From NCBI GenBank assembly GCA_035715725.1, contig DASTKT010000043.1, positions 1 through 24,456 of the forward strand: a stretch of 24,456 nt of DNA, read 5' to 3'. How positions within the stretch are numbered: the first letter of the stretch is position 1; each line of letters starts with the position of its first letter. The translations under genes and the position numbers were made by a program. This document shows positions 1 through 24,184 of this stretch, in pieces. The notes below the pieces were generated by a model. The model made no database searches. It had not been told where the DNA came from and saw nothing but the letters and a program-made list of their open reading frames with translations. Origin of the DNA: Longimicrobiales bacterium. Lineage in GTDB: Bacteria; Gemmatimonadota; Gemmatimonadetes; Longimicrobiales; RSA9.

Positions 1-89
1 CCGGCCGGCCCGGCGCCCCCCGCCCGCCTCAGGCGGATCAGCCGCGAAGGGGTGGGCGGAGGCGCGCGGGTGGGCCGGGACGAGAACGG

Positions 90-135
90 AAATCTTCACC
101 GCAGAGCACGGAGGGCACGGAGGAACACGGAGGAT
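90..135 (+). repeat. TTCACCGCAGAG anchor followed by three tandem CACGGAGG units (107-114, 116-123, 126-133): a member of the TTTTCACCGCAGAG/CRCRGAGG module family
   Basis: tcTTCACCGCAGAGCACGGAGGgCACGGAGGaaCACGGAGGat. Compare the plus strand at 22854-22884: TTTTCACCGCAGAGGCGCAGAGCACACGGAGAACGG. Confidence 0.55.
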
Positions 136-244
136 CACCGGGCACCGGAGACTCGCCGGCGTGACGCACCCTCTCTTGATGTCATTCTCCGGCGTACGCC
201 GGCGCCCGGCGTGGGGCCGGTGCGCTGCGGCCGTACCGCTGTGG

Positions 245-325
245 CCTCTGTGCCTCTCTGGTGTGCTTTTAATGGACGTGAGGCCGCGCGAACGTGAGGC
301 CGGACTCGCACTCCGCGCCGGCGGC
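245..325 (-). repeat. Copy of the GGCCTCACGT direct-repeat block (paired 12-mers at 275-286 and 292-303 on the plus strand as GACGTGAGGCC), followed on the minus strand by a degenerate CACACCAGAGAGGCACAGAGG tail. It lies 3' of the VOC gene.
   Basis: See the alignment under 20137-20230. Confidence 0.6.
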
Positions 326-2596: not shown

Positions 2597-5587
2597 ATGA
2601 GACCGACGAGGTACGTCCTGCCGACCTGCATCGGCCTGGCGCTGAGCCTGGGCGGGGCGGGTGGCCTGGCGGGACAGAGCACCGGGACGGTGCGGGGCAG
2701 GGTGATGGAGGCGGGCTCGGAGCGGCCGCTGGCGGGGGCGCAGGTCTTCATTCCGGGGACGTCGCGAGGCGCGCTGACGAATGCGTCGGGGGAATATGTG
2801 CTCTCCAACGTGACGCCGGGGACGCAGCGGGTGCGGGCGGAGATGCTGGGGTACACGACGGCGGAGCAGCCGGCGTCGGTGGCGGCGGGGCAGGCGGCGA
2901 CGCTGGATTTCCGGCTGTCGCAGAGCGCGGTGAACCTGTCGGAGCTGGTGGTGACGGGGACGCCGGGTGCGGTGCAGAGGAAGTCGCTGGGGAACACGGT
3001 CACGACGGTGAACGTGGCCGAGGTGACGCAGAAGGTGGCGAACCAGAGCGTCGCGGAGCTGCTGCAGTCGAAGGCGCCCGGGGTGACGATCTCGGGCGGC
3101 TCGGGTGAGGCGGGGACGGCGAACAGCATCAAGATCCGGGGCGTGACGTCGCTGACGGCGGGGAACCAGCCGGCGGTGTACGTGGACGGCGTGAAGGTCT
3201 TCAACGGCAGCCTGGGCAACTTCGCGCCGAACTGCTGCTCGGACCAGACGACGTCGCAGCGGACGGACGCGCTGGGCGGGATCACGCCGGAGGACATCGA
3301 GTCGATCGAGGTGGTGAAGGGCCCGGCGGCGGCGACGCTGTACGGCGCGGACGCGGCGGCGGGCGTGATCCAGATCATCACGAAGAAGGGGCGGCCGGGG
3401 CAGCAGAAGCTGCAGTGGGAGGCGAAGGTGCAGGCCGGGACGAGCAGCTGGGGCGCCGACCAGCCGGTGAACTACACGCTGTGCGATGCGGCGAAGATCG
3501 CGGCGAAGAACGCGGCGGGCGCGTTCCTCTGGCCGGGGTGCCAGGGCGTCGCTCCGGGGACGTTCATCAGCCAGAACGTGCTGACGTACGACCCGCGGGA
3601 GATCCGGGATGGCGCGCTGCGCAACTACGCGCTCTCCGTGCGCGGCGGCGGCGAGGCGTACTCGTTCTACCTGGCCGGCAACGTGGACGACGAGGACGGC
3701 GTCTTCTACAACAACTTCTCGAACCGGCGCTCGGCGCGGGCGAACTTCGCGTTCAACCCGATGCCGCAGCTCGACTTCAACGTCAACTTCGGCTACTCGC
3801 AGCAGCACATCCGGCTGCCGAAGAACGACAACGACGCGAACGGCATCATGTTCAACTCGATGCTGTTCAAGCCGGGCGCGCTGAACCCGTGGGGGAACGC
3901 GCTCCAGCCGGACACCGCGAACCTGTACGACAACCAGACGCGGGCCAGCAGCCTGATCCTGGGCGGGACGGCGAACTACCGGCCGTTCCCGTGGTTCAAG
4001 AACCGCCTGACCGTCGGGTACAACCAGACGGTGTCGCAGGCGGACATCTTCTACGCGCCGGGACAGATGGCGGTGCGGCTGGCGGCGGACCCGACGGGCT
4101 ACGTCGCGCAGCGGATCCCGCAGCAGCGGATCTACACGCTCGACTACGCCGGCACGATCTCGACGCCGGTCACGTCGACGATCAACTCCGACTTCTCGCT
4201 CGGCATGCAGTTCATCGCGAACCGCGGGCACTACCTGTACGCGGATGGGACGGGGCTGTCGAGCCCGTTCACGCGGCTGGTGAGCGCGGCGGCGAAGACG
4301 ACGGGGTCGGAGGCGGACTCGGCGGCGAACTCGCTCGGCTTCTTCGGCCAGGAGCAGGTCGGCTTCAGCGACCGGCTGTTCCTGACCGCCGGCGTGCGCA
4401 TGGACAACAGCTCGGTCTTCGGCGACCGGATCAACCGCATCTTCTACCCGAAGATCTCGGCGTCGTACGTCGTCTCGCAGGAGCCGTGGTTCCACCTCGG
4501 CCACGTCGACAACCTGCGCCTGCGCGCCGCGTGGGGGCAGGCCGGCAAGGCGCCGGGCGTCTACGCGGCGACGCGGACCTACTCCGCGTCCGTCGTGACG
4601 CTCGCCAACCACACCTCCGCGCCGGCGGTCATCGACTCGGTCTACGGCAACCCGGACCTGAAGCCGGAGCGGGGCGAGGAGATCGAGGCCGGATTCGACG
4701 CCTCGCTCTTCAACAACCGCGCGGGCGTCGAGTTCACCTACTACAACAAGCACATGCGGAACGGGCTGCTGCGGGTCGACGTGCCGCCCTCGTCCGGCTT
4801 CTCCGGCACGTACCTGCAGAACCTGGCGGAGATCGCGAACCACGGGCTCGAGATCTCGCTCACCGGCACGCCGATCCAGCGCCGCAACCTCTCCTGGGAC
4901 GCGCGCCTCAACCTCGCCACGAACTCCAACAAGCTCGTGAAGTTCGGCGTGGTCCGCCCGCCCATCATCTCCGCGACCTACGCGCCCTCGCAGCGCGTGC
5001 AGGAAGGCTTCCCGGTCTACGGCTTCTGGCGCGTCGACCCGAAGAAGGATGCCAGCGGCAACGTCGTCCTGGTGAACGGCCTGCCGCAGCGCGGCGACTC
5101 CGTCTACGTCGGCCCCTCGCAGCCCACGCGCGAGGCGTTCTTCTCGAGCACGCTCACGATCCTGCGGAACCTGACCGTGTTCGGGCTGCTCGACTACAAG
5201 GGCGGCTTCTACCAGTTCAACGTGCGCGACTGGCGGCGCGCCCGCGCGTTCCTCACGAAGGACGTGCTCGACCCGGGCGCGGACAAGACCCAGGTCGCGC
5301 TCTGGACCAGCACGTTCATCACGACGGATTGGATCCAGCCGGCGGACTTCATCAAGTTCCGCGAGCTCTCGCTCACGTACTCGCTGCCGACCGCCCTCGC
5401 CCAGCAGATCCACGCCGACCGCGCGAGCCTCACGCTCGCCGCGCACAACCTCGGCATCCTCTGGACCCGCTACGGCGGCCTCGACCCCGAGGCGAACTTC
5501 AACGGCGCCGAGGACTTCATCCGCAACGACGCCTGGACCGTCCCGCAGCAGCGCCGCCTGACGGCGTCGCTCAACGTGAGCTTCTGA
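2597..5587 (+). CDS. SusC/RagA-family TonB-dependent outer-membrane receptor with an N-terminal carboxypeptidase-regulatory-like domain
   Basis: ATG 2597 is preceded by AGGAGG with a 6-nt spacer. The translation has a signal peptide, a CarboxypepD_reg-like segment (GTVRGRVMEAGSERPLAGAQVFIPGTSRGALTNASGEYVL) and the SusC/RagA plug signature ITPEDIESIEVVKGPAAATLYGADAAAGVIQIITKKG. The C-terminal residue is Phe. The upstream part of ORF 1619..5587 is antisense to the MarR/DoxX genes. Confidence 0.9.
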   Translation: MRPTRYVLPTCIGLALSLGGAGGLAGQSTGTVRGRVMEAGSERPLAGAQVFIPGTSRGALTNASGEYVLSNVTPGTQRVRAEMLGYTTAEQPASVAAGQAATLDFRLSQSAVNLSELVVTGTPGAVQRKSLGNTVTTVNVAEVTQKVANQSVAELLQSKAPGVTISGGSGEAGTANSIKIRGVTSLTAGNQPAVYVDGVKVFNGSLGNFAPNCCSDQTTSQRTDALGGITPEDIESIEVVKGPAAATLYGADAAAGVIQIITKKGRPGQQKLQWEAKVQAGTSSWGADQPVNYTLCDAAKIAAKNAAGAFLWPGCQGVAPGTFISQNVLTYDPREIRDGALRNYALSVRGGGEAYSFYLAGNVDDEDGVFYNNFSNRRSARANFAFNPMPQLDFNVNFGYSQQHIRLPKNDNDANGIMFNSMLFKPGALNPWGNALQPDTANLYDNQTRASSLILGGTANYRPFPWFKNRLTVGYNQTVSQADIFYAPGQMAVRLAADPTGYVAQRIPQQRIYTLDYAGTISTPVTSTINSDFSLGMQFIANRGHYLYADGTGLSSPFTRLVSAAAKTTGSEADSAANSLGFFGQEQVGFSDRLFLTAGVRMDNSSVFGDRINRIFYPKISASYVVSQEPWFHLGHVDNLRLRAAWGQAGKAPGVYAATRTYSASVVTLANHTSAPAVIDSVYGNPDLKPERGEEIEAGFDASLFNNRAGVEFTYYNKHMRNGLLRVDVPPSSGFSGTYLQNLAEIANHGLEISLTGTPIQRRNLSWDARLNLATNSNKLVKFGVVRPPIISATYAPSQRVQEGFPVYGFWRVDPKKDASGNVVLVNGLPQRGDSVYVGPSQPTREAFFSSTLTILRNLTVFGLLDYKGGFYQFNVRDWRRARAFLTKDVLDPGADKTQVALWTSTFITTDWIQPADFIKFRELSLTYSLPTALAQQIHADRASLTLAAHNLGILWTRYGGLDPEANFNGAEDFIRNDAWTVPQQRRLTASLNVSF

Positions 5588-5622
5588 CCGTGCGAAACCG
5601 AACCGTGACGAGGATCGAGCCT

Positions 5623-6921
5623 ATGCGTACAGCCAGGCGCGGCCGGGCGGCCGGAATCGCCGCCATGTTCGCCGCCGCAATCGCGCTCGGGGCGTGCAGC
5701 AACCTGCTGGACGTCGAGAACCCCGGCGCCATCGTCGAGGACAACCTCAAGGACCCGCAGGTCATCCCCGGGCTGGTCAACGGCGCCGTCGCCGAGTTCC
5801 AGCGCGCCTTCGACGGCGTCGCCTTCTACGGCGGCATCTTCACCGACGAGCTGAACGACTACCAGGTCTTCTTCGAGGACCGCCCGATCGACCTGCGCGA
5901 CGTCACCCCCTCCAACGGGCTGCTCAACTCGTACGTCTACACGCCGCTGCAGCGCGCCCGCGCCGCCGGCGACCACAACGCCGACCGGCTGAAGAGCCTC
6001 CTCGGCGACAAGGCGAGCTCCAGCCTGGACGTGGCCCGCCTGCTCGACTACGCCGGCTACAGCTACCTCCTCCTCGCCGAGACGTACTGCCAGGCGCCGA
6101 TCGACGTCGGCAAGGCGCAGTCGCCCGACGACCTCTTCAAGGCCGCGATCGACCGCTTCAACCAGGCGATCACGATCGCCGCCGCGGCCAGGGCCGCCGG
6201 CGCCAGCGCCGCGTCCGCGGACTCCCTCACCAGCCTCGCCCACGTCGGCGCGGCCCGCGCGGCCCTCGACCGCAACGACAAGGCGACGGCGCTCACGCAC
6301 GCCCAGGCCGTGCCCGCCGCCTTCCAGTTCTGGGTCACGCACTCCGACAACTCGCTCCGCGAGAACAACCTCATCTACGACGCGACGAGGACCGGGAACA
6401 ACTACGCGAGCGTCGACCCCGCGTTCCTCAACCTGAACGACCCGCGCGTGCCGACCGACACGAAGCCGTCTGCCGTCGCATTCAACGTCAGCTTCTTCGC
6501 CTGGATCCCGTACCAGCCCTCCTCCTACGAGAAGTGGAACGGCCAGCTCACGCCGCTCGAGAAGGCCACGTCGATCCGCTTCGCCTCCGGCCTCGAGGCG
6601 CAGTACATCGCCGCCGAGGCGCAGGGCCCGACCGCCGCGACACTGGCGTTCGTCAACGCCCGCCGCACCGTCGGCAAGCAGGCCCCCGTCACCCTCACCG
6701 GCGATGCGCTCATGGCCGAGCTGCGCGATCAGCGCCGCCGCGAGTTCTTCCTCGCCGGCTACCGCATGGGCGACCTGCGCCGCTACAAGCAGTTCTACGC
6801 CGTCGACCAGTTCCCGACCGGCGTGTGGCCCGGCGACCAGAAGTCCGTCTACTCCACCACCGCCACCTGCTTCCCGATCCCGCAGTCCGAGCTGAACGGG
6901 AATCCGAACCTCGGGAGCTGA
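5623..6921 (+). CDS. SusD/RagB-like outer-membrane lipoprotein, cognate partner of the upstream SusC-like receptor
   Basis: It starts 35 bp after the SusC stop and has a lipoprotein signal with lipobox (AAIALGAC). Its size (432 aa), alpha-helical composition and position directly 3' of the SusC-like gene fit the family. ATG 5623 lies within the longer frame of ORF 3415..6921. Confidence 0.7.
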   Translation: MRTARRGRAAGIAAMFAAAIALGACSNLLDVENPGAIVEDNLKDPQVIPGLVNGAVAEFQRAFDGVAFYGGIFTDELNDYQVFFEDRPIDLRDVTPSNGLLNSYVYTPLQRARAAGDHNADRLKSLLGDKASSSLDVARLLDYAGYSYLLLAETYCQAPIDVGKAQSPDDLFKAAIDRFNQAITIAAAARAAGASAASADSLTSLAHVGAARAALDRNDKATALTHAQAVPAAFQFWVTHSDNSLRENNLIYDATRTGNNYASVDPAFLNLNDPRVPTDTKPSAVAFNVSFFAWIPYQPSSYEKWNGQLTPLEKATSIRFASGLEAQYIAAEAQGPTAATLAFVNARRTVGKQAPVTLTGDALMAELRDQRRREFFLAGYRMGDLRRYKQFYAVDQFPTGVWPGDQKSVYSTTATCFPIPQSELNGNPNLGS

Positions 6922-6975: not shown

Positions 6976-7360
6976 TCGCAGCGGCGGCGCAGCCGCCGCC
7001 CCTCCTGCTCCCGCTCTCCCCGCGACTCCTGTTCCTGCTCGTGTCCCTCGAATCTCCCGCCTCGACGCTCGGCGCGCGGCCCGGGTGGCGCATCACCCGC
7101 CACCCTTCCGCGCACTGCCCCCTCGACCCGCCATCGGAGGCCTCCCCATCGCTCCACCCATCCGCATCCTCGGATTCGGCGGATCCCACTCTCCGGCCAC
7201 CGCCACGATCGTATCCGGCACCGTTATGATCGTATCACACGCCGTCACGACCCTGGCGGAGCCTGCAGGGGGGCCCCCGCAGCCGCCCCGTCGGCGATAC
7301 GCGTGAAAGCTCCTCACCGTCGGGGCGGCGCGCCGCGGCGCGCCGCCTCACTCGCTCCGC

Positions 7361-7490
7361 TCCTCTGGCTCTTGCTCGCCCTCTTGCTCTTGCTTCTCGA
7401 GACTCGGCGCTCCCGGCTCGACAGGTTTGAGCCGTGAGGTTCGAGGATGCGAGGGGCAAGAGCAAGAGCATGAGCAAGAGCATGAGACGC
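7361..7490. repeat. Long imperfect inverted repeat (arms about 7368-7399 and 7449-7480) built from tandem CTCTTGCTC units. It is preceded by a 24-bp GC palindrome at 7323-7346.
   Basis: The left arm gctcttgctcgccctcttgctcttgcttctcg matches the reverse complement of cgaggggcaagagcaagagcatgagcaagagc at 27 of 32 positions. It lies 3' of the MerR gene in a 613-bp non-coding interval. Confidence 0.6.
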
Positions 7491-8317: not shown

Positions 8318-8476
8318 GGGGCATCAACACGCGATCGCCGCGAAGCCTCACGCTCGCGGGCGTCTCAGCGGTCCTTCTGTGTCGCACGGAGCCGCGGAGG
8401 GGTGGAGTCCATGTCATTCGGGGACGGGGCCGAACGGCCAGGCCGGCGTGATGGGAATCTGTACCGAATCACACAT

Positions 8477-8521
8477 GGAATGCGCCCGGTGGGATGCCTC
8501 CCACCGGGCGCTTCACATTCC
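8477..8521. repeat. REP-like palindromic hairpin, copy 1: gaatGCGCCCGGTGGGAtgccTCCCACCGGGCGCttcacattc
   Basis: Stem is perfect over 13 bp. The same core recurs at 20045-20080 and in degenerate form at 19326-19360. Confidence 0.7.
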
Positions 8522-8619
8522 CCGGAAACCATCTACTGCCCGGTACTCCTCCGCGGCTCCGCGCTCTCCGCGTGAGATGCCGTTCGCCGGCCCGGCCGGG
8601 GCCCATCCGGTGCCCGGAG

Positions 8620-8659
8620 CCCCGTGGCTCTCCGTGTGCCCCGTGGCTCCGTGTGACGC
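8620..8659 (-). repeat. Tandem direct repeat of about 19 bp (minus-strand reading CACACGGAG(A)GCCACGGGG, two copies) in the 3' region of the M20 peptidase gene
   Basis: On the plus strand, ccccgtggctctccgtgtg is followed by ccccgtggctccgtgtgac. The 15-mer GTCACACGGAGCCAC is identical to 20199-20213. Confidence 0.6.
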
Positions 8660-8711
8660 CTTCCGTTCCTCAGCCCTACCGGAGCGCCGGAGGACCGCCG
8701 GCATGAGCGAT

Positions 8712-13259: not shown

Positions 13260-13447
13260 CGCGCCACTCCTTCAGAGGATCTGAAGAAAGAATGCGGGCG
13301 CCGCTGCCGATGGACAAGCGGAGTGGGGCGAGTGGCGGCGAACGCGACGTGGGGCGCACCCGCCCGCGGAGCCCGGTGCACGGCCGCCGACCGGCCGTCG
13401 GCCTCGGCGCGACCGTCGGTGCGGCGCGGGCGCCGCGCCGGACGGCC

Positions 13448-14539
13448 TCAGCCCAGCGCCGCCGCCAGCCGCCGCAGCCCCTCCTCCAGCACCGCCGTGT
13501 CCATGCCGAAGCCGATGCGGAACGCCGCCGGGTCGCCGAAGAAGCGCCCCGGCGCGACCGTCGTGTCGTAGCGGGTCTCCAGCCGCTCGACCAGCGCGTC
13601 GACGTCGCCGCCGTCCAGCCGCACGAAGCCGACGGTGCCGGCCGGCGGGCGCAGCCACGAGAGGCGCGGCTCCGCGGCGACGAACGCGTCCACGACGTCG
13701 CGGTTGTGCGCGGTCAGCGCTTCGAGCGGCGCGAGCAGCGCCGTCGCGCGCGCGAGCGCCCGCGTGGCGAGCCGCTCGGACGGCATCGCGAGCGTCGTGA
13801 AGAACAGGTTCTGGACGCGGCGGATCCGCTCCGCCAGCTCCGGCGCGGCCAGGATCCAGCCGACGCGCACGCCGTCCAGGCCGTACGCCTTCGTCAGGCT
13901 GCGCGTCGTGACGAAGCGGGGCGAGACGTGGACGGCCGAGCCGTGCCCGCCGGCGTGCAGCCACTCGAGGTAGACCTCGTCCACGAGCACGTGCAGGTCG
14001 TGCGCGTCCGCGAGCTCGGCCAGCGCGATGAGCTCCGGAGCGCCGATCAGGGCGCCGCTCGGGTTGTGCAGGTTCGTGAGCACGAGGAGCCGGGTGCGCG
14101 GCGTGAGCGCGGCGCGCACGCGCTCCGGGTCCACCGCGTAGGCGTCGGCGCGCGCCCGCTCGAAGAAGCGCACGCCGGCGTGCAGGTATCTCGGCACGGC
14201 GTGCAGCGGCTCGTACGTCGGGCTCTCGAGGAGCACCTCGTCGCCCGGCTGGAGGAGCGTGGCGCAGACCAGGTGGTTGGCGAGGGAGGCGCCGGTGGCG
14301 AGCACGATCCGGCGCGCGTCGACGCCGTAGCGCGCGCCGAGCGCCTCGAGCAGCGGCGGCCAGCCGGAGGTGTTCGCGCCCGCGGGCGCGAGATCCTCCA
14401 GCACGGGATCGAGCAGCTCCAGCGGGCACGCCCGCACGCCGCTCGCCGAGAGGTTCCAGCGGATCCCGGCACGCGACTTCGCCCACTCCAGGTAGCGGCT
14501 CCCCGGCGCGTCCGCGCCCGCCGCGATCCGTTCCCTCAC
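13448..14539 (-). CDS. PLP-dependent class I/II aminotransferase; proposed GTG start at 14539, overlapping the upstream permease stop (GTGA)
   Basis: Lys-containing motif SLTKAYGLDGVRVGWIL (SxxK...GxRxG) and overall class-I fold. There is no in-frame ATG near the N-terminus. GTG 14539 is preceded by GGAGG with a 5-nt spacer and gives 363 aa. The rest of ORF 13448..15682 is antisense to the APC permease. Confidence 0.65.
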   Translation of the reverse strand: MRERIAAGADAPGSRYLEWAKSRAGIRWNLSASGVRACPLELLDPVLEDLAPAGANTSGWPPLLEALGARYGVDARRIVLATGASLANHLVCATLLQPGDEVLLESPTYEPLHAVPRYLHAGVRFFERARADAYAVDPERVRAALTPRTRLLVLTNLHNPSGALIGAPELIALAELADAHDLHVLVDEVYLEWLHAGGHGSAVHVSPRFVTTRSLTKAYGLDGVRVGWILAAPELAERIRRVQNLFFTTLAMPSERLATRALARATALLAPLEALTAHNRDVVDAFVAAEPRLSWLRPPAGTVGFVRLDGGDVDALVERLETRYDTTVAPGRFFGDPAAFRIGFGMDTAVLEEGLRRLAAALG

Positions 14540-16104: not shown

Positions 16105-16881
16105 ATGCACCCGTACCTCTACTGTCTGCTGCTGGGTTTCGCCGGCCTCGTCGCCATGGCGGTCATGGGCGCGTTCGCCCACGGCGGCGGCCACGACCAC
16201 GGCGCCGGCCATGACCATGGCGGCGGCCACGCGGGCGGCGCCGACGGCCACGGCGCCTTCGGCCACCACGCCGGTCACGCCGACTCCGGCGCCGCCGGCC
16301 ATGCCGACGCCCACGGGCACTTCGCCCCCGATGGCGCCCACGCCGCCGGCCACGGCCCCGCCGCCGGCCACCCCCACGCCGGCGAGCACGCGGCCCAACA
16401 CGACCACGGCGGCGGCGCCGTCCGCGGCGCGCTCGGCGGTGCGCTCGCCTGGCTCTCGCCGCGCGTCGCGTTCAGCGTGCTCGTCGGCGTCGGCGCGGTA
16501 GGCACCGCGCTCCGCCCGCTCCTCCCCGCGCCGGCCGTGCTCGCGCTGGCGCTCGTCGGCGGCGTCGCGTTCGAGCGGGTGCTGGTGGGGCCGCTCTGGA
16601 ACCTCGTGTTCCGCTTCGCGTCGCAGCCGGCGGCCACGCTGCAGGACGCGCTCTTCGAGCGGGCCGAGGCGGTGACCGCCTTCAACGCGGCGGGGGAAGG
16701 GATCGTCCGCGTGCTGCTCGGCGGACAGGTCCGGCAGGTCCTGGCGCAGCTCCGGCCGGAGGAGGTCGGCAGCGGCGTGCGCGTCCGCGCCGGCGACGGC
16801 GTCCGCGTCGAGGAGGTGGACGCCGCCCGCGGTCGCTTCGTGGTGTCGTACCTCGGCCGGCTTCCGGCCGAGACCGGGTGA
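16105..16881 (+). CDS. NfeD-like membrane protein with an unusual ~80-aa His/Gly-rich insert (about 25 His; motifs GHDHG, HAGH) between the first TM helix and further TM helices, and a C-terminal NfeD-type beta-barrel domain
   Basis: ATG 16105 is an internal Met of ORF 14722..16881, whose upstream part is antisense to the permease. The C-terminus (GEGIVRVLLGGQVRQVLAQL...GVRVRAGDGVRVEEVDAARGRFVVSY) resembles NfeD OB-fold tails. It sits immediately upstream of an SPFH/flotillin gene, the canonical NfeD-SPFH pairing. Confidence 0.6.
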   Translation: MHPYLYCLLLGFAGLVAMAVMGAFAHGGGHDHGAGHDHGGGHAGGADGHGAFGHHAGHADSGAAGHADAHGHFAPDGAHAAGHGPAAGHPHAGEHAAQHDHGGGAVRGALGGALAWLSPRVAFSVLVGVGAVGTALRPLLPAPAVLALALVGGVAFERVLVGPLWNLVFRFASQPAATLQDALFERAEAVTAFNAAGEGIVRVLLGGQVRQVLAQLRPEEVGSGVRVRAGDGVRVEEVDAARGRFVVSYLGRLPAETG

Positions 16882-20044: not shown

Positions 20045-20080
20045 ACGGCGCCCGGTGGGTTGCTTCCCACCGGGCGCCGT
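20045..20080. repeat. REP-like hairpin, copy 2: 15-bp perfect stem ACGGCGCCCGGTGGG / CCCACCGGGCGCCGT with loop TTGCTT. It lies between convergent genes and is a candidate bidirectional terminator.
   Basis: Seen directly. The core GCGCCCGGTGGG..CCCACCGGGCGC is identical to 8482-8511. Confidence 0.7.
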
Positions 20081-20136
20081 CGATTCTCCGAGGAGCGTCG
20101 ATCTCGTCTTTTCGGTGTTTCGAGCCCGCGCCCAGC

Positions 20137-20230
20137 GCCGCCGGCGCGGAGCCCGAGCCCGGCCTCACGTCCGCGGGCGGCCTCACGTCCGAAAGTGTCA
20201 CACGGAGCCACCGAGGGCACGGAAGAGCCG
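20137..20230 (+). repeat. Roughly 55-bp conserved block GCCGCCGGCGCGGAG..CGAG..CC followed by two direct repeats GGCCTCACGTCCG (20161-20173, 20180-20192) and a CACACGGAGCCAC tail. It is homologous to 245-325 in the opposite orientation.
   Basis: Minus strand of 245-325 reads gccgccggcgcggagtgcgagtccGGCCTCACGTTCGCGCGGCCTCACGTCC. Plus strand of 20137-20192 reads gccgccggcgcggagcccgagcccGGCCTCACGTCCGCGGGCGGCCTCACGTCC. Confidence 0.65.
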
Positions 20231-20336
20231 CGGAGGGCGGCCGCACCCTTCCGGCAGCACCCCGAGCCGCCGGCGTACGCCGGGAATGACATCGTAGGAA
20301 GGTGCGCTCCCCGGCGGTTCTCCAGTGCCCGGTGAC

Positions 20337-20417
20337 CCTCTGAGCCCTCTGCGCCTCTGCGGTGAAAAAGTCCGTTCCCGACCGCAGCCGCGCCCGCGGA
20401 CCGGGCCGAACGCGCCC
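20337..20417 (-). repeat. Copy A of the TTTTCACCGCAGAGG-CGCAGAGGG-CTCAGAGGG module (minus-strand reading). It abuts the stop codon (20418-20420) of the ring-cleaving dioxygenase gene.
   Basis: The plus strand 20347-20369 reads ctctgcgcctctgcggtgaaaaa. The flanking about 50 bp also align with copies at 23205-23283 and 22803-22883. Confidence 0.7.
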
Positions 20418-21488
20418 TCACGCCCCGAGCGGCACCAGCCCGCCCGCGATCTCCTCGCGGGACGCCTCCAGCCAGGCCGGCAGCTTCAGCTCCGTGCCGA
20501 GCGCGCCCGCGGGCTCGTCGACCAGGAAGCCGGGCCCGTCCGTCGCCACCTCGAGCAGCAGCCCGTCCGGGGCGCGGAAGTAGATGCTCCGGAAGTAGAC
20601 GCGCTCCATCACCGGCGAGACGTCCACGCCCAGCTCCAGCAGGTGCTCCCGCCACGCGCGCTGCTCCTCGTCGTCGCGGGCGCGGAACGCGATGTGGTGC
20701 GTCTGGCCGGCGCCGCCACGGCTGAGATAGCTCGAGCCGGCCCAGGCGAAGAGCGTGAGCGCGCTGTGTGGCGCCACGACCCGCCCGTCGTAGCTCGCCC
20801 AGAACCAGTGCGGCGTGCGCAGATCGTCCTGGTTGACGCTCTTCTTCACGACGCGCAGCCCGAGCGCCGCGTGGTAGAACTCGTCGGCCCGCTGGATGTC
20901 GTCCGTGATCCCGGTGATGTGGTGGATCCCCCGCAGCCGCATGTCGGCACCGATCGCCTCGACCGGCTCGGGCCACGTCCGCTGGCGGATCGCCTCCTCG
21001 TCGCGCGCGCCGCGCAGCTCCGCCCCGGGCGGGAGCGTCTCCTTCTGCCCGAGCGCGTCCGCCGGCTCGTCGATCGCGTAGCCCGGCCCCGACGTCGCGA
21101 TCTCCAGGATCTGCCCGTCCGGATCGGCGAAGTAGATGCTGCGGAAGTACCCACGGTCGAACGGACCCGTGACCGCGACGCCGTGGTCCTCCAGCCACCG
21201 CTTCCACCTGAGCTGCGCCTCGGGCGTCTCCACGCCGAGCGCCAGGTGATGCACGCCGCCCACGCCCCAGCGGCCACGCCCCGCGTGCGGCCACTCGAAG
21301 AACGTCAGCAGCGTCCCCGGCTGCCCCGTCTCGTCGCCGAAGTAGAGGTGGTACGAGCCCGGGTCGTCGAAGTTGACCGTCCGCTTCACCACCCCGACGC
21401 CGAGCACCTCCCGGTAGAACGCCAGCGTCCGCCGCGCGTCCGCCGAGACCATCGTGATGTGGTGGAATCCCGCCGTCCGAAGCTCCAT
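20418..21488 (-). CDS. Ring-cleaving dioxygenase, two-domain VOC family (MhqA/MhqE/MhqO/YfiE-like)
   Basis: ATG 21488 is preceded by GGAGGAG. Both halves carry the motifs (GFHHITMVSAD..FYREVLG..VKRTVNFDDP..YHLYFGD in the first; GIHHITGITDD..FYHAALGLRVVKKSVNQDD in the second) characteristic of this dioxygenase family. Confidence 0.8.
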   Translation of the reverse strand: MELRTAGFHHITMVSADARRTLAFYREVLGVGVVKRTVNFDDPGSYHLYFGDETGQPGTLLTFFEWPHAGRGRWGVGGVHHLALGVETPEAQLRWKRWLEDHGVAVTGPFDRGYFRSIYFADPDGQILEIATSGPGYAIDEPADALGQKETLPPGAELRGARDEEAIRQRTWPEPVEAIGADMRLRGIHHITGITDDIQRADEFYHAALGLRVVKKSVNQDDLRTPHWFWASYDGRVVAPHSALTLFAWAGSSYLSRGGAGQTHHIAFRARDDEEQRAWREHLLELGVDVSPVMERVYFRSIYFRAPDGLLLEVATDGPGFLVDEPAGALGTELKLPAWLEASREEIAGGLVPLGA

Positions 21489-22239: not shown

Positions 22240-22743
22240 TCACCCCGCCGGCTCCGCCACCGCCCGCGTCGACCCCTCGGTCGACGATGCCGCGGGCGAC
22301 GCCGCCGCCCGCAGCCCCAGCTTCCGCAGCAGCGCGATCGCCGCCGCCTGCTCCGCCTCCGTCAGCCCCGACACCGCCTCGACGATCGCCGCGGCGTGCT
22401 CCGGGAAGATCCGCCCCATCAGCGCCTCCCCCGCCGGCGTCAGCGCCGCGTAGATCGCCCGCCGGTCCTCCGGGCACCGCCGCCGCTCCGCCAGTCCCTT
22501 CCGCTCCAGCCGGTCCACCAGGAACGTGATCCCGCCGCTCGACGCCAGGATCTTCCGCTTGATCTCCCCCAGCAGCAGCGGTCCCTTGTGGAACAGCGCC
22601 TCCAGCACCGCGAACTCGCCCTCGCTCAGGCCGTGTCGGCCGATGTCGCCGCGCGCGTGCTGCGCCACGGCGCCGTGCGCCCGGGCCAGCACGACCCACA
22701 GCTTGAGCGCGAGCTCCCGTTCCTTGTCGTCCCGTTCCGCCAT
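22240..22743 (-). CDS. MarR family transcriptional regulator, in an operon with the YceI gene
   Basis: Internal ATG 22743 (MAERDDKERELALKLWVVL...) gives a 167-aa protein with the MarR wHTH (SEGEFAVLEALFHKGPLLLGEIKRKILASSGGITFLVDRLERKGLAERR). GAGGAG lies upstream of the ATG. Confidence 0.75.
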   Translation of the reverse strand: MAERDDKERELALKLWVVLARAHGAVAQHARGDIGRHGLSEGEFAVLEALFHKGPLLLGEIKRKILASSGGITFLVDRLERKGLAERRRCPEDRRAIYAALTPAGEALMGRIFPEHAAAIVEAVSGLTEAEQAAAIALLRKLGLRAAASPAASSTEGSTRAVAEPAG

Positions 22744-22768
22744 CGCTCCTCGCAACGATATTTCACAA

Positions 22769-22799
22769 CCAAGATACTTGGCGGTGGCCGATCGGTCAA
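22769..22799 (-). promoter_or_regulatory. Sigma70-like promoter for the MarR-YceI operon: -35 TTGACC (rc at 22794-22799), 17-bp spacer, -10 TATCTT (rc at 22771-22776). The 13-bp palindrome CCAAGATACTTGG (22769-22781) overlaps the -10 and is a candidate MarR operator.
   Basis: Minus-strand read: cccTTGACCgatcggccaccgccaagTATCTTggttgtgaaatatcgttgcgaggagcgATG. Confidence 0.5.
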
Positions 22800-22802
22800 G
22801 GG

Positions 22803-23283
22803 CCGCGGCGGCGACGGGGCCCGGCGCAGCGGCGTCGGCCTGCGAACGACCCTTTTCACCGCAGAGGCGCAGAGCACACGGAGAACGGCGACGGAGCCGG
22901 GCGGCGCGGCTTCGTCGCATCCGAAAGATCCTCTTTGAGTTGGACCGGTGGTAAGCGGGGTACCGGTACGACTTCAGTGTTCGAGTTGGACCGGTGGACC
23001 GAGGTTCATCGGTCCACCTCCTCTTGGGAGGTGGACCGGCGTGATGCGGGTCACTGGTGCCGTGGCCGGACCGGAGATTTGCGGCTCACCGGTCCACTTC
23101 ATCATCCCTGCTTCCACGTCGGAGCCGGCGTAGCCCGGATCCAGACCCCAACAGGTGGTGCGTTCGCCCGCGAAGGCTGCTCCCCGCCGGCTCAGGCCGT
23201 TCTTCGTGTACTCTGCGCCTCTGCGGTGAAAACCGTCGTTCGCAGGCCGACGCCGCTGCGCGGAGGCCCGTCGCCGCTCGCCT
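22803..23283. repeat. Roughly 480-bp foldback element. The left arm (22803-22925) and right arm (23160-23283) are imperfect inverted repeats. The outer 80 bp are about 90% identical and inner identity decays. Each arm carries the TTTTCACCGCAGAGGCGCAGAG module. The central 235 bp is rich in ACCGGT-core palindromes.
   Basis: rc(22803-22883) reads ...gtgtgctctgcgcctctgcggtgaaaagggtcgttcgcaggccgacgccgctgcgccgggccccgtcgccgc. 23205-23281 reads gtgtactctgcgcctctgcggtgaaaaccgtcgttcgcaggccgacgccgctgcgcggaggcccgtcgccgc. The right arm ends exactly at the AKR stop codon (23282-23284). Confidence 0.7.
23005..23040. repeat. Perfect hairpin in the foldback centre (GGTCCACCTCC tcttg GGAGGTGGACC), flanked by further GGACCGGTGG / GTACCGGTAC palindromes (22940-23095)
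   Basis: Seen directly. GAGTTGGACCGGTGG occurs twice as a direct repeat (22936-22950, 22983-22997). Confidence 0.6.
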
Positions 23284-24184
23284 ACCGCGCGGCGTCCAGC
23301 AGCCGCATGTCCTCCTCGTCCAGCTCGATGCTCGCCGCCGCGAGGTTCTCCTCGAGGTGCGAGACGCGCGAGGTGCCGGGGATCGGCAGCATGACGGGCG
23401 AGCGGGCCAGGAGCCAGGCGAGCGCGATCTGCATGGCCGTGGCGTCGTGGCGGCGGGCGACGCGCTCGAGGCGCTCGCGGGCGGCGCGCTCCTCGGCCTC
23501 CTCGCCGAGAGAGCCGGCGCCGAGCGGGAACCAGGGGATGAACGCGATGCCGGCGTTCTCGGCGTACTCGAGGACCGCCTCCCACTCGCGGTCGAGGATG
23601 TTGTAGCGGTTCTGGACGGAGGCGATCGGCACGACGCGGCGGGCGCGCTCGATGTCGTCGACGCCGACCTCGGAGAGGCCGACGTGGCGGACGAGCCCCT
23701 CCCGGACGAACTCGGCGAGCGCGCCGAACTGCTCGTCGGCCGGGACCTCGCGGTCGATGCGGTGGAGCTGCCAGAGGTCGATGCGCTCGAGGCGGAGTCG
23801 GCGCAGGCTTCCCTCCAGGGCGCGGCGCAGGTACTCGGGCCGGCCGTTCTCGACCCAGCGGCCCGGGCCGGGGCGCTCGAAGCCGCCCTTCGTCGCGATG
23901 ACGAGGCCGTCGGGGTACGGCCGCAGCGCCTCCGCGATGAGGTCCTCGGAGACGTACGGGCCGTAGGAATCCGCGGTATCGATGAAGTCGACGCCGAGCT
24001 CGACGGCGCGGCGGAGCACGCGCTTCGCCTCGGCGATGTCGGCGGGCGGCCCGAAGATGCCGGGCCCGGTGATGCGCATGGCGCCGTAGCCCATGCGGTT
24101 GACGACGAGGTCGCCGCCGAGGGTGATCGTGCCGGCCTGCGCGGCGGGCGGTGCGCCGGGTGTCCGGATGCTGCTGGTGCTCAT
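23282..24184 (-). CDS. Aldo/keto reductase family oxidoreductase; start ATG 24184 preferred (AAGGA, 7-nt spacer). An alternative ATG at 24352 would add an (EA)n low-complexity extension encoded by the hexamer repeat.
   Basis: AKR N-terminal pattern (TITLGGDLVVNRMGYGAMRITG), the internal LRRLRLERIDLWQLHRID motif, and the C-terminal IPGTSRVSHLEENL. Confidence 0.8.
   Translation of the reverse strand: MSTSSIRTPGAPPAAQAGTITLGGDLVVNRMGYGAMRITGPGIFGPPADIAEAKRVLRRAVELGVDFIDTADSYGPYVSEDLIAEALRPYPDGLVIATKGGFERPGPGRWVENGRPEYLRRALEGSLRRLRLERIDLWQLHRIDREVPADEQFGALAEFVREGLVRHVGLSEVGVDDIERARRVVPIASVQNRYNILDREWEAVLEYAENAGIAFIPWFPLGAGSLGEEAEERAARERLERVARRHDATAMQIALAWLLARSPVMLPIPGTSRVSHLEENLAAASIELDEEDMRLLDAAR

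Follow-up and report, generated by a model that had tools for sequence, protein, structure and literature searches.

A large intergenic foldback in a Longimicrobiales genome and its tandem-heptamer relatives in bacteria and phages

Structure of the foldback and its place between two co-directional genes

The stretch of DNA analyzed here, called the window in the following, comprises positions 1 to 24,456 of contig DASTKT010000043.1 from a Longimicrobiales bacterium (Gemmatimonadota; assembly GCA_035715725.1) and has a GC content of 73%. It carries an aldo/keto reductase (AKR) gene and, downstream of it, genes for a MarR-family protein, a YceI protein and a VOC/glyoxalase protein; AKR and marR are co-directional, both being located on the − strand. 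A search for exact matches of the MarR protein had no result. The gap between these two genes is filled by a foldback at 22803–23283, the subject of this work. Its right arm runs up to the stop codon of AKR, while its left arm ends a few nucleotides from a promoter-like sequence upstream of marR (TTGACC-17-TATCTT at 22799–22771, − strand). All positions of features in the window are collected in Table 1.

A first-pass annotation made from the DNA letters had described two mutually reverse-complementary arms whose identity decays inward, a central hairpin with ACCGGT-core motifs, contact with the AKR stop codon on one side, a position upstream of the predicted marR promoter on the other, and no coding capacity, and nearly all of this description was upheld. 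A repeat search of the window gave core arms of 82 nt each, which are 91% complementary and spaced by 306 nt, and a gapped alignment of the full arms of 123 and 124 nt (22803–22925 and 23160–23283) confirmed that the identity falls off toward the centre. Over the whole span 22808–23277 the sequence and its reverse complement agree to 69% in a gapped alignment, and the window contains the arm-derived 22-mer CTCTGCGCCTCTGCGGTGAAAA in three places, where no occurrence is expected. The inverted repeat far exceeds chance expectation, and folding of 22744–23290 as − strand RNA gave −336 kcal/mol compared with −244.6 ± 6.6 kcal/mol for shuffled sequences (z = −13.9). The perfect hairpin in the centre is present with a stem of 12 bp (23010–23021 and 23027–23038, loop of 5 nt) and not of 11 bp as first given. 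The ACCGGT-core motifs around it are TTTGAGTTGGACCGGTGG-like, with TGGACCGGTG and CACCGGTCCA as their two forms, and occur as three direct copies 45–46 nt apart plus inverted copies. No coding capacity was found in the foldback.

A tandem-heptamer family in several phyla and their phages

The arms follow the signature GAACG-N4-TTTTCACC-(GCAGAGNN)n ... (NNCTCTGC)n-GGTGAAAA-N4-CGTTC. Using the pattern CTCTGCGGTGAARA-N4-CGTTC we scanned species-representative genomes and JGI metagenomes and obtained 22 loci from the former and 30 from the latter, with one match per locus. We rejected the idea that these matches are chance singletons, as the flanks of about 20 of them show tandem heptamers and a mirror arm: two or three further (C)CTCTGCG(N) units stand directly upstream of the match, and in most of these loci the mirror-image arm is found 10–300 nt off. 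The about 20 loci come from metagenome-assembled genomes (MAGs) labelled Burkholderiaceae, Proteobacteria, Planctomycetota, Verrucomicrobiia, Gemmatimonadetes and Blastocatellia with GC contents from 43% to 71%, and the genes adjoining family copies appear unrelated, judging from an inspection of translations rather than a Pfam run. A second scan, with the pattern CTCTGCGNCTCTGCGGTGAA in IMG/VR, gave 52 loci, many of them with 2–4 elements. In the 765 kb of loci fetched in this way (numbered with an L in the following) a half-site profile detected 152 half-sites and 43 inverted pairs, 36 of them distinct, measuring 66–400 nt. The common design consists of TTCACC, 2–4 tandem heptamers of the CGCAGAG type per arm, a variable, lineage-specific loop and a mirror arm closing with GGTGAA. 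CACGGAG, CACAGAG, CGCAAAG and CGCTGAG occur as heptamer variants, 1–2 free nucleotides stand between heptamers, and the flanks outside the arms are A/T-rich.

It is well supported by these sequence comparisons that the window foldback belongs to this family of tandem-heptamer hairpins, and the taxonomic labels of the loci indicate that the family spans at least six bacterial phyla and their phages. The search for the arm sequence elsewhere, suggested in the first-pass annotation, was decisive in this respect, and the suspicion of a dispersed family instead of a local duplication was confirmed by relatives in the window, in other MAGs, in isolates and in phages. The annotation had also considered a recombination-generated palindrome. 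A one-off inverted duplication or recombination at this locus would have no meaning for a family. The arms are indeed 91% alike, compared with about 70–80% to the other copies in the window. Against this explanation, the same signature and architecture recur in 43 inverted pairs (36 distinct) elsewhere and in many phyla, both arms of the foldback score as family half-sites, and a high arm-to-arm identity is the rule in the family, making a locus-specific origin extremely improbable. With 480 nt the window foldback is the largest copy seen, whereas typical copies have 80–170 nt and fold as near-perfect hairpins with −50 to −100 kcal/mol.

Pairing within the family was examined in 35 arm pairs, in which 89.6% of the cells are paired and both-side changes occur in 15 of 31 pairs; none of 500 shuffles matched this. 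When the partner is slid along the arm, pairing falls to 60% or less. The heptamers are near-invariant and the 1–2 nt spacers between them are often unpaired, and therefore the sequence is conserved as well as the structure.

Cultured organisms also carry the family. Megaplasmids of Gemmatirosa kalamazoonensis have about five foldbacks per 100 kb, a Bacteroides ovatus plasmid has a family hairpin between gmd and fcl, and plasmids of Sphingobium and Sphingopyxis have copies with the closing motif TTTCGC replacing TTCACC. Searches of 5,426 E. coli genomes and of the INPHARED phages yielded no family copy, and the full 481-bp foldback had no match among plasmids. An apparent multi-copy repeat shared by L001 and L011 was rejected, being merely a 141-nt assembly k-mer overlap. 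Family elements often lie a few hundred nucleotides from contig ends (L001/L011, L005, L006, L016, L048 and L054), and family palindromes may break de Bruijn-graph assemblies.

Four more relatives of the foldback lie in the same 24 kb; the window holds 4–5 family members overall. For one of them, element C, the first-pass annotation had reported a solo arm copy at 20337–20417. The copy exists and is not solo, as a degenerate partner at about 20195–20240 makes it a second foldback. The segment 65–342, containing element A, is an inverted copy of 20120–20398 with 73% identity; it aligns with the right half of the window foldback as well. In the reading direction of the adjacent gene, all window copies begin with GAACG-N4-T(T/C)TTCACC-GCAGAG followed by tandem heptamers, for example GCGCAGAG, CACACGGAG or, in the copy at 84–142, (CACGGAG)3.

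Several side observations concern the same regions. The paralogous VOC/glyoxalase genes at 352–1341 and 20418–21488 share about 74–75% nucleotide identity in stretches and each is followed by one of the related repeats (63–342 and 20120–20400; 73% identical), the orientation of the repeat to the gene being opposite. The hairpin at 7363–7486 has its pyrimidine-rich arm on the 5' side and adjoins a perfect 24-nt palindrome, GGCGGCGCGCCGCGGCGCGCCGCC, at 7324–7347. Another hairpin, which has the sequence GCGCCCGGTGGG-N6-CCCACCGGGCGC and a perfect stem of 12 bp, is shared by 8480–8511 and 20045–20080; both copies are intergenic and adjoin tandem-heptamer arms, and their likeness covers 37–52 nt of flank (77–84%). 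Finally, GC-rich repeats with a period of 18 nt (CGCCCACGGCGGCGGCCACGACCAC-like) are found at 16176–16430 and 13270–14535, where no open reading frame (ORF) passes the GC3 filter.

Table 1. The foldback, its parts, neighbouring genes and further elements of the family type in the window.
Feature	Position	Strand	Remarks
Whole foldback	22803..23283		fills the gap between AKR stop codon and marR promoter-like site; 480 nt
Left arm, marR-proximal	22803..22925		22808–22889 pairs with 23196–23277
Right arm, AKR-proximal	23160..23283		terminates at AKR stop codon (23282–23284)
Family half-site GAACGACCC-TTTTCACC-GCAGAGG-CGCAGAG-CACACGGAG	22844..22891	+	nhmmer half-site profile 44.1 bits, E = 4e-12; pattern match
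Mirror half-site, + strand reading ends CTCTGCGCCTCTGCGGTGAAAACCGTCGTTC	23193..23241	−	nhmmer 44.1 bits
Central domain with TGGACCGGTG / CACCGGTCCA copies	22926..23159		copies at 22934–22951, 22980–22997, 23025–23042, 23087–23101; 12-bp hairpin 23010–23038
AKR gene	23282..24184	−	PF00248; stop codon adjoins foldback
MarR-family gene	22240..22743	−	downstream of foldback; L023 orthologue with PF01047
YceI gene	21565..about 22135	−	
VOC/glyoxalase gene	20418..21488	−	
Element C	20195..20417		strong arm 20328–20400 adjoining VOC/glyoxalase stop; degenerate partner about 20195–20240; 46.4 bits
Element A	63..270		arm 84–142 = (CACGGAG)n; degenerate partner 233–265; 33.6 bits; 73% identical to element C over 291 nt
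Fourth region, diverged arms of family type	8375..8680		8385–8401 (−), 8549–8585 and 8620–8680 (+); by eye and regular expression, below nhmmer threshold
Opposite-polarity hairpin (CTCTTGC)4 ... (GCAAGAG)4	7363..7486		same tandem-heptamer principle; downstream of MerR/TipAS gene; fold z = −6.1

Nine of the loci belong to T7-like phages that are related to one another and encode a portal (PF12236) and a capsid protein (PF20911). The element follows the portal gene in some of them, separates the scaffold gene from the capsid gene in others and comes behind the capsid gene in yet others. At these positions T7 has its RNase III sites and the terminator Tφ. Close phage relatives do not have the element at the same junction, and other phages of the group show hairpins built from other units in tandem, (CTGAGGA)n or (GGCTGAAG)n, in the post-capsid position. 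That differing tandem hairpins are found at this site suggests that a hairpin is needed there. Such hairpins of other units were seen in L066, L094 and L103 and also at L073:1545–1640, the (CTGAGGA)n type having an A8 loop, and the post-capsid hairpin of L066 has the direct repeat TGAAGCG on both flanks.

Copying, loss and possible mobility of the elements

The loops are 85–97% identical solely among copies of one contig or genome. Therefore whole units multiply within genomes and only the arms are common between lineages; such multiplication of whole units, loop included, was found even within one phage. Another behaviour is visible at the gmd-fcl junction of Bacteroides, where the hairpin is present in two B. 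ovatus-like genomes (L111 and L132), with the inner heptamer and the loop of one running opposite to those of the other. In genomes of B. acidifaciens, whose Gmd is 97–98% identical, just a TCTGTGGTGA remnant persists directly past the stop codon. This pattern means inheritance, flipping inside the palindrome and loss by deletion, not fresh insertion, and it shows how solo arms originate. In the same region, about 20–200 nt downstream of fcl, the copy number of TTATAGCATATC-containing units (about 25–40 nt) differs among the Bacteroides genomes (L116–L132), and one Bacteroides assembly has a run of N at this repeat spot.

The closest relative of the window is L023, in which AKR is 86% identical and the synteny of AKR and marR is kept. 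Homology stops at the AKR stop codon and at the −35 box of marR, and the foldback segment is without homology; the AKR-marR gap of L023 has 785 bp and no recognizable arms. We rejected L023 as a clean empty site, since its gap is larger, contains an unrelated element and shows a faint complementarity of GGCGGAGG and CCTCCGCG (z about −1.4), which could represent a decayed relative. The unrelated element (L023:3400–3902) has 503 bp, a GC content of 58% and AT-rich terminal inverted repeats of 39 nt (ATTAATTAGACAGGATGAACAGG..., 87% complementary), and looks like a miniature inverted-repeat transposable element (MITE) at the site equivalent to the window foldback.

For the foldback itself a MITE-like nature had been proposed at the beginning. 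A classical MITE would be non-autonomous and move by cut and paste; a DDE transposase would bind to its terminal inverted repeats, where each tandem array would offer several binding sites in the form of heptamers. Inverted arms, dispersed copies and the lack of arms at the orthologous site in L023 are in line with this proposal, some copies start with TGAACG ... CGTTCA, recalling TG...CA ends, and the element bounded by terminal inverted repeats in L023 indicates that the site tolerates insertions. However, neither the ends of about 36 copies nor those of the window copy show target-site duplications, and the ends are not sharp, complementarity dwindling gradually into the flanks. Furthermore, the element length is continuous from 66 to 400 nt, no copy is located between divergent genes, and no transposase is encoded inside any arm pair. 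Even the widest pair, in L058, encloses only two small ORFs for membrane proteins. No autonomous insertion sequence with family ends was seen among the fetched loci; the collection scans cannot pair ends that are 1–3 kb apart. We consider a classical MITE improbable. The L058 pair, found on a viral contig, is unusual also in its geometry: its inverted arms (5560–5595 and 6156–6197) are 560 nt apart and do not form a compact hairpin, and the two enclosed small ORFs, predicted to encode membrane or coiled-coil proteins, lie on the opposite strand.

A different kind of mobility would be that of REPINs, hairpin-forming doublets of repetitive extragenic palindromic (REP) sequences. The family would then be selfish DNA mobilized in trans as single-stranded DNA hairpins by a single-copy HUH enzyme (IS200-like or a REP-associated tyrosine transposase, RAYT) or by another structure-specific enzyme, the heptamers and TTCACC / GGTGAA would serve as its binding or cleavage signals, and effects on transcripts would be incidental. 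The missing target-site duplications, the architecture of hairpin doublets plus solo arms, the multiplication of whole units with their loop within a genome and even within one phage, and the variable presence at orthologous phage junctions all agree with this scenario, as do the conservation of the heptamer beyond the needs of pairing and a strand asymmetry described below, which is also compatible with single-stranded DNA hairpins. The location pattern is the same as that of REPs, for which tagged superfamilies extending across phyla provide a precedent (PMC3733652). On the other hand, a GTAG or CGTC tag is absent, the individual arms are not palindromic, and the Bacteroides site speaks for long vertical persistence and loss by deletion and not for fresh insertion. 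A tblastn search with two approximate Y1/RAYT-type queries found no match in the 765 kb of element-bearing loci, which is weak evidence given the approximate queries and the fact that such genes are single-copy. In a search for a recurrent neighbouring protein as a possible mobilizer, phage structural genes alone recurred near the elements, because several of the loci are related phages. On balance a REPIN-like origin appears fairly unlikely to us.

A proposed role as RNA hairpins at 3' ends and relation to known systems

The position of the copies relative to genes points to a role in transcripts. In the comparison loci 19 copies lie between co-directional genes, nine between convergent genes and none between divergent genes, and the stem starts mostly 0–16 nt past a stop codon. 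Where the two strands could be clearly ranked by fold stability, the one in sense with the upstream gene came first in 16 of 18 cases (p = 0.0013). The 8 nt past GGTG are 74% A/T compared with a background of 41%, with AA first and T-rich positions at +5 to +8, and carriers of lower GC content show the layout A-tract, stem, T-tract. Copies stand behind stop codons and within phage operons, are absent from divergent regions, tend to fold better in sense and have flanks like those of terminators; from this we infer an RNA hairpin at transcript 3' ends. We give about an even chance to the interpretation that the window foldback is an outsized, GC-rich representative of a widely distributed family of extragenic hairpins, acting as a REP-like or terminator-like RNA hairpin at the 3' end and also persisting as repeated DNA.

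The hairpin would then work mainly as RNA, at the 3' terminus of the transcript coming from the upstream gene (AKR in the window), where it might block or pause read-through into marR-yceI and insulate this operon from AKR, and it may also shield the upstream mRNA from 3' exonucleases. Low- and mid-GC carriers have the look of a bidirectional intrinsic terminator, whereas the window copy without a T-run would be a hairpin barrier instead of a canonical terminator. Template switching or inversion within the palindrome probably maintains part of the arm complementarity. The first-pass annotation had mentioned a structured RNA or terminator shared by convergent transcription; as a type of function this is the best supported one, while the convergent arrangement does not apply to AKR and marR, which run the same way.

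Several findings weigh against such a role. A terminator scan of 22600–23400 found no canonical terminator pattern, and the flanks of the foldback, which read AAAACCGTCGTTC, include AAAA while a T-run after the stem is absent. In addition, the + strand of the foldback (−241 kcal/mol) is more stable than the − strand, which is the AKR sense (−221 kcal/mol), which makes the window copy one of two cases among the 18 that break the sense-strand rule. The rule itself depends on sense strands assigned from raw ORFs, which are error-prone in high-GC DNA; an excess of G·U pairs in the sense strand was not significant (73 compared with 56, p = 0.16), and the strand asymmetry could equally result from single-stranded DNA hairpins on one replication strand. 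Moreover, the heptamer sequence is conserved across phyla beyond the needs of pairing, for which a structural role gives no explanation. The window foldback is atypical for the family, being oversized, without a T-run and more stable in the antisense, and therefore its own activity is less certain.

Conservation beyond pairing would be expected if the heptamers or the TGGACCGGTG motifs were protein-binding sites in double-stranded DNA, for example operators for MarR or nucleoid- or partition-type sites, possibly extruded as a cruciform. Six or more copies of the 10-bp ACCGGT-core motif stand upstream of the marR promoter-like site, L023 retains one GGACCGGTG copy at a distance of about 100 nt upstream of its promoter, and TTTCAC / GTGAAA presumably resembles parS half-sites. 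However, the motif array begins more than 130 nt upstream of the −35 box, the family is found after unrelated genes and within phage structural operons, and the strand asymmetry is unexpected for a site in duplex DNA. Similar centres also occur in family members away from marR, namely in L052 and in L023:1–245, a long-loop member with a GGTGGAC / GACCGG-rich centre like that of the window. An array for protein binding is thus quite improbable, and the central TGGACCGGTG array looks like lineage-specific filling and not like a MarR operator, because it is also present in L023:60–115.

A bolder and more tentative proposal, which we regard as possible but less likely than not, goes further. The tandem-heptamer hairpin may be an undescribed element, sequence-conserved across Gemmatimonadota, Bacteroidota, Acidobacteriota, Planctomycetota, Verrucomicrobiota and Proteobacteria as well as phages, whose sequence is read by something universal, either RNA polymerase or a nuclease or binding protein that is itself conserved. 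In this case nested inserts would have turned the window copy into a giant derivative. The repeated UGCG of the 3' arm in arrays with a spacing of 8 nt would fit the elemental pause consensus, G(−10) Y(−1) G(+1). If RNA polymerase is the reader, successive pauses might take the place of the U-tract that high-GC genomes lack here.

Searches in Rfam 15 gave no gathering-score match for the window or for at least 14 element-bearing loci, and permissive searches gave merely sub-threshold matches to generic long hairpins (miRNA precursors). Literature searches, with incomplete coverage of the literature, returned only unrelated primers for the arm sequence and nothing on the motif for keywords.

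Among described systems it resembles bidirectional intrinsic terminators and the U-tract-less, I-shaped terminators of high-GC bacteria in having a strong GC-rich hairpin right after the stop codon, and its low- and mid-GC carriers share with intrinsic terminators the A-rich 5' and T-rich 3' flank. Terminators are not sequence families, in contrast to the conserved repeated heptamer, stems of 30–45 bp and units copied within genomes observed here, and the window copy differs from intrinsic terminators by its missing T-run. The phage copies resemble the RNase III sites and Tφ of the T7 group in lying between late genes or just past the major capsid gene, upstream of the next ribosome-binding site; this likeness is positional alone, without any sequence relation. 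Correia elements of Neisseria and the enterobacterial repetitive intergenic consensus (ERIC), also called intergenic repeat units (IRU), are similar as imperfect palindromes of 100–150 bp which are transcribed with their neighbours, affect mRNA processing or termination and are strain-polymorphic. They have defined termini, with a TA duplication in the case of Correia, and each is confined to one bacterial family; to our knowledge no tandem-heptamer arms have been described for either of them. With REPINs the family shares two inverted units with a spacer forming a hairpin, the lack of target duplications, solo units resembling decay products and genome-specific sequence subfamilies. REPINs are RAYT-mobilized and have genus- or species-specific sequences, whereas the arm motif of the family recurs across phyla and phages and no RAYT is linked to it.

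The nearest described systems are the GTAG- and CGTC-tagged REPs, which are alike in ecology and in the idea of a cross-phylum tag and differ in size, stem and tag (PMC3733652). Like REPs and the bacterial interspersed mosaic elements (BIMEs) built from them, the family consists of multi-copy extragenic palindromes between co-directional and convergent genes, forms inverted dimers that fold into larger hairpins, has a short tag common to several phyla and is a candidate for the roles in termination and mRNA stabilization proposed there. REPs of the two tagged superfamilies have 20–40 bp with a stem of 8–13 bp and a terminal tag (Di Nocera et al. 2013, PMC3733652), whereas the arms of the family are tandem-heptamer arrays of 25–35 nt, TTCACC / GGTGAA closes the stem, the elements measure 66–480 nt, a consistent GTAG/CGTC tag is lacking and none was found in the E. 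coli genomes searched.

If the family is as broad as the samples suggest, it would offer a mark by which the 3' ends of genes can be recognized and searched for, both in many phyla that have been little studied and in their phages. It would then aid the annotation of operons and terminators in MAGs, explain contig breaks at palindromes and flag spurious small ORFs predicted on the repeats. It also raises the question why a specific heptamer is kept in genomes from 43% to 73% GC, and with the gmd-fcl junction of Bacteroides ovatus, Gemmatirosa kalamazoonensis and the sphingomonads there are cultured carriers that allow experiments.

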